UHGV virus genome: UHGV-0258472
Reading direction: 5' to 3' (one strand)
Origin: a virus
Length of the DNA: 55,135 nucleotides
Translations under genes and position numbers: made by a program
The notes under the pieces: model-generated
The model's input: the letters and a program-made list of their open reading frames with translations, nothing else
Told to the model about the DNA's origin: nothing
Database searches by the model: none
Shown here: positions 13,781 through 55,006 of the stretch, piece by piece
How positions within the stretch are numbered: the stretch's first letter is position 1
Layout of the letters: each line of letters opens with the position of its first letter

Positions 13781-13894
13781 TCACATATTAGTAATCAGTT
13801 TTATGATCGCCACCGTAATATAAAGCGATACGCTGAGATACAGCACCGCCACCGCTACCGCCGCAAGCAATGCGGCAATTTTTGCAAGATTCAT
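13781..13894 (-). CDS. small hydrophobic membrane peptide (37 aa)
   Basis: ATG at 13894 overlaps upstream stop (ATGA); SD ggaggg. Confidence 0.4.
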   Translation of the reverse strand: MNLAKIAALLAAVAVAVLYLSVSLYITVAIIKLITNM

Positions 13895-14115
13895 TTCCCG
13901 CCCTCCGCAATGAATTTATCAAGCCATTTGTTATTCGCCAGTCGTTCGGCATCTTCGCCAAATGATTTACGTTCGCTTAATTCCTTGCGCGTTGGAAAGT
14001 GCCAGTGATCATGCCAACCCGCAGACGTTTCGAATTCATACAAACCACCGCTAAAAGTAATAAGATCATCAGCACCGTCCGGCATTTCTTTATCGACTTC
14101 TTTATCTTCGACCAT
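13891..14115 (-). CDS. hypothetical protein (74 aa)
   Basis: ORF track; ATG at 14115. Confidence 0.4.
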   Translation of the reverse strand: MVEDKEVDKEMPDGADDLITFSGGLYEFETSAGWHDHWHFPTRKELSERKSFGEDAERLANNKWLDKFIAEGGK

Positions 14116-14129
14116 GATTTAATACCTCA

Positions 14130-14408
14130 TTAATCGTTAATAACCTGGCCCATACGACCGCGATATTTGCGCATACGTGGATCGACATATTCAGGCCAAT
14201 GCATATCCGGTTTTCTTTGCAGTGGGTAAAAACTTGCCTGCCAGTTGTCGAACCATATTTGCTTTGCGTACAGGTCACTAAATCTTTTCGCCATCCGATC
14301 CGCTGCCGTGCCGCATAAAAAAAGCCCATGATCGATTTGATCACGGGCTTCTTTTAATACTTGCTCTTTTGTTCGTGGTGGCGGTGGCGGTTTTAGATAA
14401 TCACTCAT
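14130..14408 (-). CDS. hypothetical protein with poly-proline stretch
   Basis: ATG at 14408 (ORF-track first codon is GTG). Confidence 0.4.
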   Translation of the reverse strand: MSDYLKPPPPPRTKEQVLKEARDQIDHGLFLCGTAADRMAKRFSDLYAKQIWFDNWQASFYPLQRKPDMHWPEYVDPRMRKYRGRMGQVIND

Positions 14409-47823: not shown

Positions 47824-48748
47824 ATTTAGCGTGCGCAACCTTATAGTTTTCTTGCGCCCGATCTAATATTCGTTTGTTTAATATGTTACCGTCTTCGTCA
47901 ACCAATACGGTAATCGTGCTACATTTGCAGTTAATTGAATTTGGGGATCTGCTCCACCATTCGCGCTGCTCATCTATGGTGTATGTTTTCCCGTGCCGCT
48001 GCGCGTGCGATAGCCTGGTAGTCGGTGACAATGCCGAAATGTGCATTTGCATAGTGCGCAGATTAAGCTCTTCTGTCGCCGCTTCTGCCTCATCCATACG
48101 TGCTGTGCGTAACGCTGTGCATATTTCAGTTCTGGCAATACGTTTGCACCTGTATAGCGGCAATTGCGTTTCCTGCTGCAATGTGCGCGCTATTTCCAGT
48201 GGATTTAAACCACGGGCCATACCTTCGGTTAATCGCCGGGCCATATCCTTCTTGATCTGTGCTGTTAGCCCGCGCATTTCCTCAAATACACGGGTACGAA
48301 CAAGGGCAAGACGCGTGCGGTAAGTCGTACTTGATAGCACGGCGGATACATCAGGATAAGCGCTTGAGTAAGTAACAGACTGGTTGGCGAGGTTGGCATA
48401 TTCCTGTGAAGTGCCGCGCTGATATGCCACCTTCACGTATTCCTGCCAAAACCAAAAACTTTCCGGGTCGGTTAGCTCGAATATTTCATCAATCATGTCG
48501 CTGGCGTCTTCCAGCAAATCATGCAATTCGTCAATGTAGATCTGGAAAGTGTATTTCTTATTAACAGCCAGGCTATATTGTATTCTGTCCAGTATGGCGA
48601 TATATGGATCGGCTATTTTCTTCAGGCAGGATTTGAAACGCTTAATAGCTCCCGACCGTAACTTACCTGTCATGGTCGGGTCTTCGGTGTTAGATGGCAT
48701 TATCGCGGCGGGAGGTATTCGCCTGATTATTTTCTTCACCTTCATCAT
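47804..48748 (-). CDS. Mu F-like minor head (head morphogenesis) protein
   Basis: Size and position immediately after portal gene; resemblance to Mu F / SPP1 gp7 family from memory. Confidence 0.65.
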   Translation of the reverse strand: MMKVKKIIRRIPPAAIMPSNTEDPTMTGKLRSGAIKRFKSCLKKIADPYIAILDRIQYSLAVNKKYTFQIYIDELHDLLEDASDMIDEIFELTDPESFWFWQEYVKVAYQRGTSQEYANLANQSVTYSSAYPDVSAVLSSTTYRTRLALVRTRVFEEMRGLTAQIKKDMARRLTEGMARGLNPLEIARTLQQETQLPLYRCKRIARTEICTALRTARMDEAEAATEELNLRTMQMHISALSPTTRLSHAQRHGKTYTIDEQREWWSRSPNSINCKCSTITVLVDEDGNILNKRILDRAQENYKVAHAKYGEDWE

Positions 48749-50063
48749 CGTTTTCCTCGTCTTCCAGTTCTATTTCACTAGCTGGGCCATCGTATCCGGC
48801 AGCTTCGCGGATCTCGTCACCGCTAAATATTTCCTCACCAGTAGCAAGACAAGCCTGATTGATTTGCGCCATTTTGTGTGCCGCTTCCAGTAGCTCGGCT
48901 TTTGTCATGGCGTTAAGGTCATCCCATAAAACTGATACATCGACTGGCATACTGATAAGGCGGAGATCTGCCATCTTGCGGAATAGTTCCTCAAGCTCGC
49001 CTCCTATTTCCTCGCGGCGGGTCATACAGCGATTATTGAAGTAGCGGAGGTCTTCAGTTGATGCGCGTTCACCCTGCTGATTCCCAACCAGGATACGCGT
49101 CGGGATGTCGATACCAGCGGCGGCAGTTTGCAGGTTTACGTCATAGGTTGCAGATGGATCGGCTACGGCAGTTACCAGCGGGCTAACACTTGCCCCTTGT
49201 AATGCCATCATCACATCATTACCCCTGTTCATTTCTGCTGCTGCCTCGTTGAATTTCTCGCGTAGCTCTGTAACGTCGCAATCGTATGTTGCAGCCAGGG
49301 AACGGAAATCAATCTCTTTATCGAACGAGATAGCCAGTTGACGAGCGGCATTTTTCAGGAATGACTCACCGCTACCGCCTTCCACTTTCTCCAGCGAAAC
49401 GAAAGCGTTATAGGACGGCTCAAGGAAAGCGATAGCATCATCAGAATAATCACCGAAGATGAATATACGGTCTGGATGAATCTTTCTTGCTATGGTCTTA
49501 CTGTTGATGCGCTCCTTGTATTCCCACCATGTAGGCAGGCCATAGTTTTCTTTATCCGGGTTTTCTTCGAAGTCCTTCGGCGTAAGAGCACCAGCCCACG
49601 CAGGGGTAAATTTGGCAATGCCTACGCCTTTTGTCACTGGCTGATCCCACGGCTGGTTATCTCTGACATGAATTAACAGACCAGCATAACGACCAATGAG
49701 GCGGCGGCGATCGCATTCAGCTATGACGCGCCAGAAACGATTATCAAATTGCTTTTTAATTTCTCTTTCCCACGGCGTTTCCGTTTCTGCTTTCTCGTCT
49801 TCCGTACCTTCGATCAGCGTTGGCCTGGTGCGCCAGCACGTTGTAATGATCTTCTCAATAGCACCGTGAGCAATACCACCGCGACGATACAGCTTGTATA
49901 AATCGTCATAGGTGATTTCTTCTTTGAATCCGTATTCACTCCACGCAGCATCACGTTTTGCATCAATACCCATTGAGAATGGGTTAACGGCTGCATAGCG
50001 GGCGAAGGCCGCCTGGCGTTGTGACAAGGCAGCATTAACCGCCAATTCTAAATTGGATGGCAT
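48690..50063 (-). CDS. portal protein
   Basis: ~457 aa, acidic C-terminus, immediately downstream of terminase large subunit; start set at ATG 50063 (SD aggag). Confidence 0.65.
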   Translation of the reverse strand: MPSNLELAVNAALSQRQAAFARYAAVNPFSMGIDAKRDAAWSEYGFKEEITYDDLYKLYRRGGIAHGAIEKIITTCWRTRPTLIEGTEDEKAETETPWEREIKKQFDNRFWRVIAECDRRRLIGRYAGLLIHVRDNQPWDQPVTKGVGIAKFTPAWAGALTPKDFEENPDKENYGLPTWWEYKERINSKTIARKIHPDRIFIFGDYSDDAIAFLEPSYNAFVSLEKVEGGSGESFLKNAARQLAISFDKEIDFRSLAATYDCDVTELREKFNEAAAEMNRGNDVMMALQGASVSPLVTAVADPSATYDVNLQTAAAGIDIPTRILVGNQQGERASTEDLRYFNNRCMTRREEIGGELEELFRKMADLRLISMPVDVSVLWDDLNAMTKAELLEAAHKMAQINQACLATGEEIFSGDEIREAAGYDGPASEIELEDEENDDEGEENNQANTSRRDNAI

Positions 50064-50141
50064 AATGTTTACTCCTGAATACATGTTTACGCGTTGCTAC
50101 GCGAAAAATAGAAAAATTCGTGAGGGATTGTGAGGCAGATT

Positions 50142-51620
50142 TTAAAATCCGCGCAGGCGCTTAGGTAACATGAGGCCCATTGCCTGTGGCTGGCTTAATT
50201 CAGTGATACCCCATACCATTGCGTCGAGGCGGTCAGGGGATTTTTTAGCGGTAGCTGGCACGTATTCCATCATTTGATTTTCCAGCGTGTACAGGCTGCC
50301 TGTGTGGGCCACCCTTCCTTGTGCATACAGTGCCGATATTGGCTCGGCGCGGGCGAATTTACCTTTGCTTGCGTGCACCTTAACAATGCGGCCTTTGAAT
50401 CCGGCATTACGTAGCGTGGCCTCCGCCATTTCGCCGCCCTGGTTGGTTTCTATAACTATCGCGTCAGCTTCATGGATGTTGTAAGCGTTCATTGATGCTT
50501 GCGCCCAGTCGTTAGGAGACATGCGGCCTGAGTAGTCACCGTCTACAGAATACTGTGCGTACTTGCCGCCACCATAAGCGGAACATGCCACGATCCCGGT
50601 TTCGTCCGACTCATCAGATGATGTTGTTGCCGGGTCGATGGCTATCACCGTGCGGATCCTGTCCTGCGTTATCTGCATCCGGTGCGCGGCGGTTATCATC
50701 GCTTCATTCCACAACGCGCCCTCTTCGTCGAATCTGCGCGGGCGCTGCATGTACTGGGCCTCAAATGACCTTCTGTGTGCCTTCAGTCCGGCTTCATGGC
50801 TGTCATTGTGCTTTTTAGGCCATAGCCAGCCGTCTGGCAGGTTGTGAGCAATAGGAATAGCGAATTCGTTTTCCGGGTACAGATCCCAATAGTCGATGCT
50901 GTTGTCGATCTTCACTGGCAGGTTAAGGTGATACCACTTCTCACCGCTGCCGCCGCGTAACAGGTAGCCGGACAAATCATCGTAGTGGATGCGCTGCATA
51001 ATGACGATAACAGGCGTCTCCTGTACGGCAAGACGTGAAGCGAGCGTGTCGTTGTAGTTGTTCTTTACCTTATCCCGCATCACATCAGAGTAAGCGTCAG
51101 CGGGCTTTAATGGGTCGTCGATAATTAACGCGCCGTTGAAGCCTGGCTCCATGTAACCAGCACGAAAACCCGTGATCTGACCGTGTGACGATGCGGCATA
51201 TATCCCGCCGCCCTGTTCCGTCCACCACATTGATTTGGAGTTGGCATCATTGCGGATCTTCATAGGCCACATTGCTTGATACTCTGGCGAGCAAATCATA
51301 TTTCTGACTGTCGACGAATTGAGTAATGCGAGGTTGTCGGAATAGGAGACGTGAAGAAAACGCGTGCGGGGATTTATTGCGAGGGACCGCGCCATCATAT
51401 TGATAGTTGCGATCATGGTCTTGCCGTACCCTGGGGGAATGTTAATGATGAGGCGGGTAATCTCACCATTGATAACGCGTTGCAGTGCATCGCGGATAGC
51501 TATGTGATGGCCTGAGACAAACATCTTCGTACCGTTTGCTTGCTTGTAGAAATAGCGGTTGAAGAACAGGCCATCGTTTTCACATTTGGATTGTATAATC
51601 CTTTCTTTAAGCGACAACAT
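50142..51620 (-). CDS. terminase large subunit
   Basis: Walker A PPGYGKT, ATPase and C-terminal nuclease-like region; ATG 51620 with SD gaggtg (ORF-track first codon is GTG). Confidence 0.85.
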   Translation of the reverse strand: MLSLKERIIQSKCENDGLFFNRYFYKQANGTKMFVSGHHIAIRDALQRVINGEITRLIINIPPGYGKTMIATINMMARSLAINPRTRFLHVSYSDNLALLNSSTVRNMICSPEYQAMWPMKIRNDANSKSMWWTEQGGGIYAASSHGQITGFRAGYMEPGFNGALIIDDPLKPADAYSDVMRDKVKNNYNDTLASRLAVQETPVIVIMQRIHYDDLSGYLLRGGSGEKWYHLNLPVKIDNSIDYWDLYPENEFAIPIAHNLPDGWLWPKKHNDSHEAGLKAHRRSFEAQYMQRPRRFDEEGALWNEAMITAAHRMQITQDRIRTVIAIDPATTSSDESDETGIVACSAYGGGKYAQYSVDGDYSGRMSPNDWAQASMNAYNIHEADAIVIETNQGGEMAEATLRNAGFKGRIVKVHASKGKFARAEPISALYAQGRVAHTGSLYTLENQMMEYVPATAKKSPDRLDAMVWGITELSQPQAMGLMLPKRLRGF

Positions 51621-51622
51621 AA

Positions 51623-52108
51623 TCACACCTCGTCTTCTACTTCCTGGACGATGCGGGCGATCTCTTCTTTCGTGACTTCAACCTGGACGGGCGCTTCTTC
51701 CTTGTTGCCGACGATCTCCTGTGTGACGCGTTCGCCGTATTTGCGCGGCTGAAGTTTTGCCAGTAGCCACTTGCGCGTTTCAATCATTAGTTGGTGGCGT
51801 CGCAACTGATCTTTATCTTCGTTCTCTGCTGCATCAGCCAGATCGATGATTTCATCAGCCAATACCTCGAAGCCGATCTCCTTCGCGCGCGCGTACATGA
51901 TCGAGAATTCCGGTACATCCCTAAACCATTTCAGGATTGTGGAACGGGTAGGCATACCAGGCATTTTCGAAATTTTATTAATACTCTGACCATCCGCCAC
52001 CAGTTCACAGATTTCTAATGCTTTTTCTTCGGTATAACCATGCGGACGGCCCACCTTTTTAGCGGCTGGCTTTTTATCGTCAGCCTTTGCCTTTTTAGTG
52101 CGGGCCAT
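51623..52108 (-). CDS. terminase small subunit
   Basis: 161 aa basic N-terminal HTH-like region, immediately upstream of terminase large subunit; ATG 52108 with SD gagaggtg. Confidence 0.7.
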   Translation of the reverse strand: MARTKKAKADDKKPAAKKVGRPHGYTEEKALEICELVADGQSINKISKMPGMPTRSTILKWFRDVPEFSIMYARAKEIGFEVLADEIIDLADAAENEDKDQLRRHQLMIETRKWLLAKLQPRKYGERVTQEIVGNKEEAPVQVEVTKEEIARIVQEVEDEV

Positions 52109-52118
52109 ATTTCACCTC

Positions 52119-52202
52119 TCAATATTTATTGATGATATATACGCAAGCAACAAAACTTGCACAGTATGTTAATACTTCCAACCAGTCGAATAATTCTTTC
52201 AT
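52119..52202 (-). CDS. micro-gene 10 of array: MKELFDWLEVLTYCASFVACVYIINKY
   Basis: ATG 52202 with SD aaggtga; in-frame upstream ATGs could extend it. Confidence 0.35.
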   Translation of the reverse strand: MKELFDWLEVLTYCASFVACVYIINKY

Positions 52203-52270
52203 TGTTGCCATCACCTTTACTTTACTTGCTGAATTTAGGAAGCGCATAAATTGCGCGTCCAAGCTATAAC

Positions 52271-52339
52271 CTATTGAGTTAGCGCGGTCATGGTAAGAAC
52301 AATAGCAACAATCAGGAAAAAGAAATCAAGCCATTTCAT
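52271..52339 (-). CDS. micro-gene 9 of array: MKWLDFFFLIVAIVLTMTALTQ
   Basis: ATG 52339 with SD aggag. Confidence 0.4.
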   Translation of the reverse strand: MKWLDFFFLIVAIVLTMTALTQ

Positions 52340-52355
52340 TTTTAACTCCTGCGAT

Positions 52356-52427
52356 TCAGTTAACGCTTAAAAGCACCGCAACGATGACGATCACTATAAT
52401 CATGCAAAAGAAGTCTGCTTCCCTCAT
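52356..52427 (-). CDS. micro-gene 8 of array: MREADFFCMIIVIVIVAVLLSVN
   Basis: ATG 52427 overlaps upstream stop (ATGA). Confidence 0.4.
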   Translation of the reverse strand: MREADFFCMIIVIVIVAVLLSVN

Positions 52428-52504
52428 CTTTTTAACCCTCGATAAAAATCAACGGCAATTACTGTAATAACAGCCACCAGCAATAGCATTTCGTATGCGT
52501 TCAT
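52424..52504 (-). CDS. micro-gene 7 of array: MNAYEMLLLVAVITVIAVDFYRGLKR
   Basis: ATG 52504 overlaps upstream stop (ATGA). Confidence 0.4.
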   Translation of the reverse strand: MNAYEMLLLVAVITVIAVDFYRGLKR

Positions 52505-52599
52505 TTGATGCTACCCATAACAAGACCAATGATGATGATTATGGCGACAATGCCTAACATCATTCCGCACATAATCGCCAGTAATTCGAATATATCCAT
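52501..52599 (-). CDS. micro-gene 6 of array: MDIFELLAIMCGMMLGIVAIIIIIGLVMGSIK
   Basis: ATG 52599 with SD aggtga; the ORF-track 67-aa version is a non-ATG upstream extension. Confidence 0.4.
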   Translation of the reverse strand: MDIFELLAIMCGMMLGIVAIIIIIGLVMGSIK

Positions 52600-52607
52600 G
52601 CCGTCAC

Positions 52608-52682
52608 CTATACAACATTCTTCCACCAGAAATAGATAATGACGGCGACCAACGACCACCAGATGAGATCGTAAATATTCAT
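52608..52682 (-). CDS. micro-gene 5 of array: MNIYDLIWWSLVAVIIYFWWKNVV
   Basis: ATG 52682 with SD-like aaggta. Confidence 0.4.
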   Translation of the reverse strand: MNIYDLIWWSLVAVIIYFWWKNVV

Positions 52683-52693
52683 GGTGAATACCT

Positions 52694-52768
52694 TCAGCTT
52701 TCAATGAATATCATGATCGCCAGCCATACAGCGACGCAGGCAGAAAGGATAATGAGCGGGTCAATCAT
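52694..52768 (-). CDS. micro-gene 4 of array: MIDPLIILSACVAVWLAIMIFIES
   Basis: ATG 52768 with SD ggtga, 4 nt after upstream stop. Confidence 0.4.
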   Translation of the reverse strand: MIDPLIILSACVAVWLAIMIFIES

Positions 52769-52772
52769 ATTT

Positions 52773-52847
52773 TCACCATAGCCTGTAAATGTTCACGCCA
52801 ATACCTATGATGAGCACAAATAACCAAATGAGATCGTAGGCATTCAT
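52773..52847 (-). CDS. micro-gene 3 of array: MNAYDLIWLFVLIIGIGVNIYRLW
   Basis: ATG 52847 overlaps upstream stop (ATGA). Confidence 0.4.
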   Translation of the reverse strand: MNAYDLIWLFVLIIGIGVNIYRLW

Positions 52848-52939
52848 GATTTGCTTTTTACAGTTATCAGTACAGCTATAATAAAACACACCAGGAATAC
52901 AGAAATGCCGATCAATCCGGCAATGATATAATCATCCAT
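52844..52939 (-). CDS. micro-gene 2 of array: MDDYIIAGLIGISVFLVCFIIAVLITVKSKS
   Basis: ATG 52939, 2 nt after upstream stop. Confidence 0.4.
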   Translation of the reverse strand: MDDYIIAGLIGISVFLVCFIIAVLITVKSKS

Positions 52940-52941
52940 AA

Positions 52942-53031
52942 TCAATCCTGCATAGACATAGCCACCAGAAACATGCAAAGAATGAATCCAGCCGCCATAC
53001 CGCCTATAAACGTTAATATTGATGCAATCAT
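52942..53031 (-). CDS. micro-gene 1 of array: MIASILTFIGGMAAGFILCMFLVAMSMQD
   Basis: ATG 53031 with SD ggggtga, 2 nt after stop of 53034..53576. Confidence 0.4.
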   Translation of the reverse strand: MIASILTFIGGMAAGFILCMFLVAMSMQD

Positions 53032-53033
53032 AA

Positions 53034-53576
53034 TCACCCCCGTTTAAAGCTCATAACACGAGGTACAAGCGCTTCTTTTGCTTTCGGCTTACGTTTGCCT
53101 TTCTTAGCTGGTTTTTTCTCTTCTTTCGGCTGTTCTGCCTGTTCTAATGCCTGCTCAACGACTTCAGCCGCCTGCATTGCTGCAACCTGTGCTTCGTTTG
53201 ATTCTGCCAGGATAGGGAAAAATGCATCAAAGATGCGGCCTACCATGTAAGCGTAAGTCTCATTCGCCGGATGAGATGGATCAGTGGTAGCCACGACGCC
53301 TACATCACTTAAAACATGGAATGTGGTGTGAGCGCATTCATGTACCAGCGTTCCTAACTCATTGTCGAATACTGCGATCACGTAGAAGTTACCGCCTTTC
53401 TCACCAGTGCAAGTAAGCGTCAATCCTCCTGCCAGTTCGAAATCAGGCTCAATTGGAATTCCTGCCTTTTCGCAAAATTCATAAAACATCTCGCGGGTCG
53501 GGCAAAAGAAAACGGTTGTATGCTCAAAGAGCGGTACTTTGAATTGAGGCAATTTAATGCCTTTAGCCTTAGCCAT
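53034..53576 (-). CDS. hypothetical protein with HExxH motif (HECAHTTFH) and Lys-rich C-terminal tail
   Basis: ATG 53576 with SD aggag; possible zincin-like metal site; function unknown. Confidence 0.5.
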   Translation of the reverse strand: MAKAKGIKLPQFKVPLFEHTTVFFCPTREMFYEFCEKAGIPIEPDFELAGGLTLTCTGEKGGNFYVIAVFDNELGTLVHECAHTTFHVLSDVGVVATTDPSHPANETYAYMVGRIFDAFFPILAESNEAQVAAMQAAEVVEQALEQAEQPKEEKKPAKKGKRKPKAKEALVPRVMSFKRG

Positions 53577-53854
53577 CAGAATAATCTCCTATTCTGAAAA
53601 ATATAACCCCCGCAAAACTCGACACCGCAGGGAGTGAAAACAGCTATAAAACACTGAAAACGGCGCTTAATCAGTACCGTTTCCAGAATTTTATAAAATT
53701 GGTGAATGGCGCTTTCTTCTACCCAGGTAGCGCCGACCTGTTAATGGGACTGTTGATCCGGTATTACGTGTTTTTGACTTTTCCGCCGTCGCTCGCGGGA
53801 AGGATTGGCCCGGTTATGGCTGGCTGGCGGAAACGGCGACACGTCCACGCGCTG

Positions 53855-54325
53855 TTATTCTTTGCGTATGCACTGCGTCTTGATGTAGTCCTGCAATCCG
53901 GTGATCTTCGCGTCTTTCTCTTTTAGTTGTTCTCTGAGGGATAGATAAGCCGATTCAGCGTCGGGAGTGAGTCTACAGGCGGCTCCATCAATGCTGCTGG
54001 CGGTTCCGGTGGCGTCTGACACTCGCACGGGTATTGCGTTGACGTGCAACCGGATAGCACCGCTATCAATACCAGCACGCAGATCAGCAATGTCAGATCT
54101 GATAGCTTTAATTTCATCGTGATACCTCTTATCAAGTTTTGACAGTTCGGCGTTTCGCTCCTTCATCTGCTGAATAGTGTTACTTGCTGTTTTTAGTGCG
54201 CCCTGCGTAGTAGTTAGCTCGCTTTGCATTGTGTTTATCACTGACTGGCAGTGACTAAGCGCGGCAACAAGCCCAACAACGACACAAACGATAGCGGCGA
54301 TGATTAACGTCTTCACCTTGTCCAT
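53855..54325 (-). CDS. Rz-like i-spanin
   Basis: N-terminal TM anchor, coiled-coil periplasmic domain; ATG 54325 with SD ggggtga; follows endolysin. Confidence 0.7.
53923..54117 (-). CDS. Rz1-like o-spanin lipoprotein embedded in Rz in the +1 frame
   Basis: ATG 54117 with SD aagaggt; lipobox LSGC, Pro-rich mature region; fully nested within Rz. Confidence 0.65.
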   Translation of the reverse strand: MKLKLSDLTLLICVLVLIAVLSGCTSTQYPCECQTPPEPPAALMEPPVDSLPTLNRLIYPSENN

Positions 54326-54805: not shown

Positions 54806-55006
54806 TTACTTATTCCCCATTCGCGCGTCGTGTTCCTCTTGCGCTCGCTTGTTCTCCTGTGATTTGAAGTAATAATTAACGGCAAATGTGCCTATGGTTG
54901 ATAAGATACCAACAAAGACGGCAATATCATTGATGGTTATCGCGCCGAAAAAAGCAGTTACGGCCCCAGTCACATACGCGCACGCCTCCCGTATTCTGTC
55001 GAACAT
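54806..55006 (-). CDS. class II holin (pinholin-like, two TM segments)
   Basis: 66 aa, two hydrophobic segments, charged C-terminus; ATG 55006 with SD ggaggt; pairs with a SAR endolysin. Confidence 0.65.

Follow-up and report, generated by a model that had tools for sequence, protein, structure and literature searches.

A predicted minimal gluzincin-type metallopeptidase of the PHROG 1365 family with a polybasic tail in mEp021-group phages

Introduction

The viral genome UHGV-0258472, of which 55,135 nucleotides were analysed as one stretch (the window), encodes between its lysis cassette and a run of micro-genes a protein of 180 residues with an HExxH motif and a Lys-rich tail. The locus raises the question of what this protein does and whether its position beside the micro-genes has a bearing on its function. 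The initial annotation, made from the DNA sequence, had offered two readings: a zincin-like enzyme that processes or partners the micro-gene peptides, and an unrelated nucleic-acid-binding accessory protein. Several elements of an answer are already known, namely that zincin-like domains occur in phages and plasmids (PMC5512222), that the protein cluster PHROG 1365 exists and that one homolog carries a metallopeptidase label; judged from the sequences, the uncommon feature of the mEp021-lineage protein is its tail. The family is present in the well-studied phages P22, HK620, L, ε34 and ST64T, as well as in T7-like and jumbo phages, and has neither a name nor a Pfam model; in the P22 reference record its gene is unannotated.

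The gene and its neighbours

The 180-residue open reading frame (ORF) is a real gene. It lies on the same strand as the holin, endolysin, Rz/Rz1, micro-ORFs, TerS, TerL and portal (Table 1), and its Shine–Dalgarno sequence is identical in phage MagusPhagus and replaced by AGAGG at the same site in mEp021. The description of a 180-residue product on the late strand that abuts the micro-genes was confirmed by the ORF list and the sequence: the ATG of the first micro-ORF lies 2 nt past the stop codon, which itself (53034–53036) overlaps a GTG start of that micro-ORF. The gap between the gene and TerS is filled by about ten tandem micro-ORFs of 22–47 residues, the product of each being essentially one hydrophobic membrane-span-like segment. 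The same slot in mEp021 holds about five micro-ORFs, which are unannotated, next to a family gene 97% identical to that of the window, and a stretch of roughly 100 nt over the first micro-ORF matches rV5-like phages (FV3, ECP2303) at 82–84%. On the lysis side, the Rz-like spanin gene contains an out-of-frame ORF of 70 residues with a Cys-containing hydrophobic N-terminal stretch (…SGCTSTQ), the usual arrangement of an Rz1-type outer-membrane spanin.

By megablast, the region belongs with the Nus-dependent temperate coliphages of the mEp021 (mEpimmI) group, at nucleotide identities of 95.8% to MagusPhagus and about 90% to mEp044, mEp010, mEp554, mEp013, mEp021 and mEp515. The gene is kept in every mEp021-group phage found (90–99% protein identity), each deposited homolog in these phages being annotated as 'hypothetical protein', and it is not discussed in the paper that describes the group (PMC11893012). 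Sixteen virion proteins have been mapped by mass spectrometry in mEp021, and the ortholog is not among the annotated virion proteins; a virion-packaged or injected effector is disfavoured on this ground.

Within the gap of 278 nt between Rz and the gene are two tandem terminator-like hairpins, a region with a predicted RNA folding energy of -48.8 kcal/mol (z = -4.5 versus shuffles). MagusPhagus has the same two hairpins without change and mEp021 has conserved versions of them, with a terminator annotated at the equivalent place in the mEp021 record; they escaped detection by a simple terminator scan. A search of the gap for σ70-like promoters gave none. As the mEp021 group depends on Nus factors and antitermination (PMC11893012), a late transcript made under antitermination probably covers the 180-residue gene, the micro-genes and the packaging genes. 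The AGGAG of the gene is at the apex of a third small hairpin.

Table 1 Coordinates of features in the window and at related loci
Feature	Coordinates	Strand	Remarks
180-residue coding sequence	53034..53576	-	Complete; ATG start, 180 aa plus stop; ortholog of mEp021_49, member of PHROG 1365; from ORF list and sequence
N-terminal catalytic-type domain, residues 1-128	53193..53576	-	Predicted minimal gluzincin-like fold; AlphaFold2 with 97-sequence alignment
HECAH, residues 79-83	53328..53342	-	Predicted two metal-binding His and catalytic Glu, on active-site helix; read from sequence
NETYAY, residues 105-110	53247..53264	-	Predicted third metal ligand: E106, on the 'glutamate helix'
Acidic Ala/Glu/Gln-rich helical linker, residues 129-152	53121..53192	-	pI 4.2; helix to about residue 147 in full-length model
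Polybasic tail, residues 153-180	53037..53120	-	EKKPAKKGKRKPKAKE, then conserved ending ALVPRVMSFKRG; predicted disordered
Shine-Dalgarno AGGAG	53586..53590	-	9 nt 5' of ATG of the 180-residue ORF
Third small hairpin	53577-53596		Ribosome-binding site at its top
Two tandem terminator-like hairpins	53597..53696	-	Each followed by a U-run; within the Rz-to-gene gap
Rz	53855-54325	-	Rz1-type ORF embedded
Embedded 70-residue ORF	53923-54135	-	Inside the Rz-like spanin gene
Endolysin	ORF end at 54313	-	
Holin	54806-55006	-	
Micro-ORF run, about ten	52119-53037	-	
TerS	51623-52108	-	
TerL	50142-51626	-	
Portal gene	48690-50084	-	
Mre11/SbcD-type and exonuclease neighbours of family genes	L018 4381-5544; L021 4360-5625; L022 873-2135; L020 680-1387		
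P22 family ORF	NC_002371.2 about 13849-14226 (L004 2989-3366)	+	Intact; HECAH and NETYCY present
Tad2-like gene	L006 4729-5004		Overlaps a tailed family member
PF18894 PhageMetallopep genes	L049 3870-4505; L018 7122-7775		Pre-terminase slot

Predicted fold of the N-terminal domain

The N-terminal domain (residues 1–128) was modelled by AlphaFold2 from an alignment of 97 sequences with a pLDDT of 94.3 and a pTM of 0.87, all five models scoring above 92. The model contains strands at residues 11–13, 21–25, 51–57 and 63–69 and helices at residues 28–38, 44–48, 74–91 and 103–128. A strand, a helix, two strands, the HExxH helix and the Glu helix follow one another in the order given for the zincin core in PMC5512222 and PMC7213743, and the three-stranded sheet with a backing helix that precedes the two active-site helices in that core is present. 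HECAH lies inside the helix of residues 74–91. Structural modelling had been named in advance as the place where the zincin idea might fail; with a pLDDT of 94, the model sets the HExxH in zincin core topology.

Active site and conservation

The HECAHTTFH stretch reported by the initial annotation is present at residues 79–87. Taken by itself a bare HExxH is weak evidence: about 0.005 occurrences are expected per 180-residue protein, and the motif is found in two of the 213 six-frame ORFs of the window, the second of these being spurious. Conservation was assessed on an alignment of 97 of the 225 relatives found by an exhaustive HMMER search with the N-terminal domain over 1.84 billion cluster representatives (E ≤ 1e-3); the aligned sequences are 22–66% identical to the query. 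Only Gly51, His79, Glu80, His83 and Glu106 are invariant in this alignment, which takes the HECAH motif far beyond chance, and Pro15 and Tyr110 are conserved in at least 90% of the homologs. This pattern suggests that the active site is under strong purifying selection, and the invariance of Glu80 argues for catalysis, beyond mere metal binding.

The segment E106-T-Y-A109, placed by the model on the helix of residues 103–128, fits the gluzincin motif (E/H)xx(A/F/T/S/G) as defined in PMC7213743. The usual spacing in the family is HExxH, 19 residues and Glu, and the 180-residue protein has a three-residue insertion at this point. Typical members thus have the Glu 20 residues past the second His, which is the spacing of thermolysin. 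An HExxH followed by an invariant Glu on the next helix is the signature of a gluzincin metal site, so that the sequence pattern supports the zincin reading. The proposal of a zincin-like metal site is supported by three observations: the invariant HExxH and Glu, the zincin core in a high-confidence model, and zinc metallopeptidases as the only coherent group of neighbours in the searches described below.

Family and structure searches

The protein matches PHROG 1365, a cluster labelled 'unknown function', with E = 4e-31 (residues 1–131 against profile positions 3–124 of 127), as do 96 of the 97 aligned homologs. The 225 relatives are nearly all standalone proteins of 110–140 residues, and the N-terminal domain alone makes up most of the family, the members of which are about 120 residues long. 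A further profile search (A3) returned mostly the same close E. coli prophage copies and only five new proteins. Among the HMMER relatives is a giant protein of 5449 residues (P0165) that matches only profile positions 3–24, in seven separate stretches; these correspond to the N-terminal KLPxFKVPLF-type segment and may represent a repeat resembling the first strand, or chance.

Used alone, the 180-residue protein gave no match in Pfam (E up to 10), NCBIfam or the sequences of the PDB, and neither the protein nor its homologs reached any curated family model. The profile and structure searches for zincin folds that had been proposed for this protein returned zinc metallopeptidases as the only coherent group among its structural and weak sequence neighbours. 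SprT-like (PF10263) was the only Pfam family matched repeatedly among the 25 of 27 matched families listed for the 97 members: 12 of the 97 matched weakly, the best with E = 1e-4, all of them below the gathering score of 25.6 bits, and the 180-residue protein had no PF10263 match. Aligned by hhalign to the single sequence of E. coli SprT, a template of little power, the family profile gave a probability of 5%. MPTase-PolyVal (PF18818) was matched neither by the 180-residue protein nor among the 25 of 27 families listed for the 97 members; one homolog (P0118, 63% identical) bears the name 'PolyVal Metallopeptidase superfamily domain', which is source annotation only. For PhageMetallopep (PF18894) there was likewise no match from the 180-residue protein, nor from its homologs among the families listed (25 of 27), and hhalign of the family against a PF18894 neighbour gene, again a single-sequence template with little power, gave 1.6%. 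An antirepressor protease of the ImmA/IrrE type (COG2856) was rejected on genomic context, the combination of an adjacent cognate HTH repressor gene and a match to the family model not being found.

NCBIfam matches over the 97 members were scattered and sub-threshold (mod_HExxH in six, WD_0702 HEXXH in two). The sub-threshold PDB sequence matches of profile A3 were all zinc metallopeptidases; with profile A5 the best two were myroilysin, followed by a non-peptidase at E of about 1. The structural matches in BFVD were to uncharacterised small proteins of phages with many different hosts; the few that bear a name are called 'SprT-like', 'SprT' or 'Metalloprotease'. No characterisation of the family was found in the literature on hkcC, phrog_1365, MPTase-PolyVal and small phage HExxH anti-defence proteases. 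Together, the alignments and the model indicate that PHROG 1365 is a distinct, unnamed family within the zincin/gluzincin superfamily.

Linker and polybasic tail

The three parts of the protein differ in charge, with calculated isoelectric points of 4.9 for the core, 4.2 for the linker and 11.3 for the tail (12 Lys and Arg versus two Asp and Glu). In the full-length model the Glu helix runs on through the acidic segment and the last 30 residues are disordered, with pLDDT below 50 over residues 151–180. The linker differs in length among close homologs by insertions and deletions (alignment A1). The Lys-rich tail of the initial annotation is present (KPAKKGKRKPKAKE, residues 155–168), but the polylysine is not the extreme C-terminus, since ALVPRVMSFKRG comes after it. 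The 180-residue sequence shows no hydrophobic stretch that would point to a signal peptide or a transmembrane span.

A tail of at least eight residues beyond the domain occurs in six of 149 family representatives and is net basic in five of the six. The ending VPR..(F/Y)KR(G/W) is common to the closest tailed relatives, P0118 and P0121, and in some close E. coli homologs the C-terminus, although different, is again Lys-rich. Because tails are rare in the family and the basic charge is kept where the tail has been replaced, the tail appears to be a lineage-specific add-on selected for positive charge, and the core function of the family would have no need of it. In its simplest reading the tail would tether the enzyme to DNA or another polyanion; as most family members are tailless, DNA tethering cannot be the general mechanism of the family. 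The alternative that the protein is an unrelated nucleic-acid-binding accessory protein is thus plausible for the tail, with its isoelectric point of 11.3 and conserved basic character, but it leaves the conserved catalytic core unexplained.

Genomic context across the family

Family genes follow the lysis genes in the window, ST64T, RSB3 and several metagenomic lineages (L008, L009, L010/L011) and precede the terminase in many lineages. The order in the P22-like phage ST64T is holin, endolysin, Rz, DUF2560, the PHROG 1365 gene, Dec and TerS; in RSB3, which is virulent and T7-like, it is TerS, TerL, endolysin, an Rz-like spanin and the PHROG 1365 gene. Metagenomic lineages show SLT followed by the family gene, Phage_lysozyme followed by the family gene with a 4-nt overlap and, in another case, Phage_lysozyme, the family gene and a TerS-like HTH protein. 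A census of one locus per lineage in 25 lineages from viral contigs, in which the nearest same-strand ORFs of at least 70 residues were labelled with Pfam, gave Phage_lysozyme as the top family among the two nearest upstream ORFs (five of 25 lineages, versus a baseline of roughly 4%; P of about 0.003), yet these are a minority of lineages; LysC was found in two and Rz in one. Terminase and portal were the commonest downstream families.

Other settings are different. HK620 hkcC and the P22 ORF lie after the ejection gene 16, beside sieA. The P22 ORF, unannotated in the record, encodes 121–125 residues, is a homolog of hkcC and is located between sieA and orf59a, overlapping the annotated sieA promoter. 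In the 72.5-kb Klebsiella phage vB_Kpn16-P2 and the jumbo phage Motura the family gene is found within blocks of small hypothetical genes, and in the Ackermannviridae phage CRW-SP2 it lies two genes after exonuclease subunits 1 and 2. An Mre11/SbcD-like metallophosphoesterase gene is directly 3' of the family gene in three lineages, in two of them with overlapping stop and start codons; these neighbours belong to PHROGs 704, 20266 and 221, with weak N-terminal HTH matches in L018 and L021. PD-(D/E)XK nuclease, HNH, ParB-like, ABC-ATPase-like and Tad2-like genes are also found nearby. The Tad2-like (anti-Thoeris-type) gene is directly 5' of a tailed family member, in a region (L006) with two ParB_N genes, an ABC/AAA_29-type ATPase and a thioredoxin, and with the large terminase a few kilobases on. 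A separate putative metallopeptidase family, PF18894 PhageMetallopep, occupies the same pre-terminase slot at two loci. In L049, a P22-like viral contig, its gene is the next one after the family member; in L018 it comes just ahead of a DUF2280 gene, itself located before the large terminase.

The PHROG 1365 gene therefore has the character of an accessory gene, found preferentially at the lysis/packaging junction but tied to neither module. Its context is heterogeneous and so does not identify the target of the protein.

Proposed function and alternatives

We consider it probable that the protein is a late-made cytoplasmic minimal gluzincin metallopeptidase that cleaves a protein target, provided in this lineage with a polybasic tether. 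The first roughly 128 residues would form a zinc metallohydrolase of minimal gluzincin type, most probably a peptidase, with predicted metal binding by His79 and His83 on the active-site helix and Glu106 on the next helix; Glu80 would activate water and Tyr110 may stabilise the substrate. In the mEp021 lineage this domain would have gained the acidic helix and the disordered polybasic tail, which may tether the enzyme to a polyanion, most likely DNA, much as a zincin is combined with a DNA-binding part in Spartan/SprT and ArdC. The enzyme would then cleave a host or phage protein and not the neighbouring micro-peptides. Late synthesis is expected because the family gene is mostly placed after the lysis cassette and before the terminase.

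The metallopeptidase proposal leaves the target free, and it overlaps with the first alternative, in which the protease is a counter-defence or host-takeover effector that cuts a host protein such as an immune sensor or effector. Unlikely in itself, this reading ranks highest among the specific ones. The gene is small, patchily distributed and located in variable accessory regions (with sieA in P22 and HK620 and a Tad2-like gene in L006) and among the small-hypothetical-gene blocks of vB_Kpn16-P2 and Motura; in the conflict proteins of phages and plasmids no domain is commoner than the zincin (PMC5512222), and the metalloprotease domain of ArdC is required to overcome restriction (PMC7213743). 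Against this, the gene is late here and its product is not reported in virions, so that it would arrive too late to counter defences triggered by the entry of DNA.

Lower in the ranking is an accessory role in the lysis module, in which the protease, at the end of infection, would act on a cytoplasmic target through which lysis timing or envelope integrity is controlled, such as a holin/antiholin regulator or a host factor. The gene directly follows or overlaps the end of the endolysin or spanin gene at the junctions listed above for the window, ST64T, RSB3 and the metagenomic lineages, and the upstream enrichment of Phage_lysozyme, together with LysC or Rz in others, points the same way. Most lineages, however, have no lysis gene within two genes: the family gene is among small hypothetical or DNA-metabolism genes in vB_Kpn16-P2, Motura and the Ackermannviridae phage, adjoins sieA and gene 16 in P22 and HK620, and even here is separated from Rz by the two terminator-like hairpins and 278 nt. 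As the lysis and terminase modules are adjacent in many phages, the position may reflect a merely permissive junction, and we regard a dedicated lysis role as improbable.

We give equally little weight to the reading of PHROG 1365 proteins as 'deblocking' proteases that, late in infection and beside Mre11/SbcD-like nucleases or terminase, would strip phage DNA of proteins attached to it tightly or covalently. Such an enzyme would be a viral analogue of the Spartan/Wss1 and MRN route of DNA–protein crosslink repair, with the mEp021-lineage tail as a DNA tether; the recurrent nuclease and terminase neighbours and the SprT-like resemblance keep this reading open.

Somewhat less probable still is a zincin-like fold without peptidase activity, such as a metal-dependent hydroxylase or phosphohydrolase, or a metal-binding protein with a purely structural or regulatory role. 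Not every HExxH fold is a peptidase, and no peptidase family threshold was reached; the aKG-HExxH peptide beta-hydroxylase model has weak matches in six members (best E = 0.015), and E. coli SprT also weakly matches the YgjP-like family, an overlap among zincin-like sequence families. The aKG-HExxH matches, however, are far under the curated cut-offs and cover the HExxH helix only, and the full gluzincin triad and Tyr with thermolysin-like spacing are what a hydrolytic site needs, the invariance of Glu80 again pointing to catalysis.

Least probable of all is the suggestion that the protein matures, activates or degrades the micro membrane peptides as their processing enzyme or partner: its stop codon abuts the first micro-ORF on the same strand, probably within a common transcript, and the arrangement recurs in the mEp021-group phages examined (MagusPhagus and, with a shorter array, mEp021), but dozens of lineages carry the family gene without such an array, the genes downstream of it in lineages that were translated or family-labelled encode Dec, TerS-like proteins, nucleases, ATPases and others and no micro-peptide arrays, the micro-ORF count varies (about ten versus about five) while the family gene stays nearly constant, the rV5-like phages have a homolog of the first micro-gene without a PHROG 1365 gene, the micro-peptides have no evident pro-sequence and the enzyme has no membrane anchor. 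The adjacency of gene and array, from which the initial annotation had drawn that role, is best explained if both are cargo of one permissive junction.

The outcome is a re-annotation, from 'hypothetical protein' to 'predicted minimal gluzincin-type metallopeptidase', which adds no new mechanism and will not surprise a specialist. A strictly conserved catalytic-type site in a protein of 120 residues is nevertheless an easy experimental subject, and if the target is a host defence protein or a DNA-bound protein the family would constitute a new class of small phage effector.

Comparison with known systems

The closest relatives are the other members of PHROG 1365, which include Orf129 of phages L and ST64T, ORF47 of ST104, gp70 of epsilon34, HK620 hkcC and mEp021_49. 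The 180-residue protein is a direct member with the same conserved residues; the ST64T gene occupies the same slot between lysis genes and terminase, and the other Orf129-type matches have comparable genome positions. Most members are tailless and about 120 residues long, whereas this lineage adds the acidic helix and the polybasic tail. Since the family has no assigned function, membership explains nothing mechanistically.

The polyvalent-protein MPTase domains and the C-terminal domain of ArdC (PF18818) share with the protein the HExxH helix, a Glu on the next helix, a conserved Tyr and the same core order of a small sheet and helices, and are likewise found in mobile-element proteins; ArdC also pairs its protease with a DNA-binding part. 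The resemblance to SprT-like, Spartan and Wss1 proteins (PF10263) consists of the weak Pfam matches, the SprT-like structural neighbours and the idea of a small zincin combined with a basic DNA-binding element, and the recurrence of Mre11/SbcD-type nucleases near family genes extends the parallel. The candidate third ligand is Glu106, in contrast to the His of Spartan (PMC7213743), and the C-terminal part of the 180-residue protein has no Cys/His ribbon, unlike E. coli SprT with its Zn_ribbon_SprT. The closest systems further include the classical gluzincins (thermolysin of M4 and the M3 oligopeptidases) and minimal zincins such as PDB entry 3e11.
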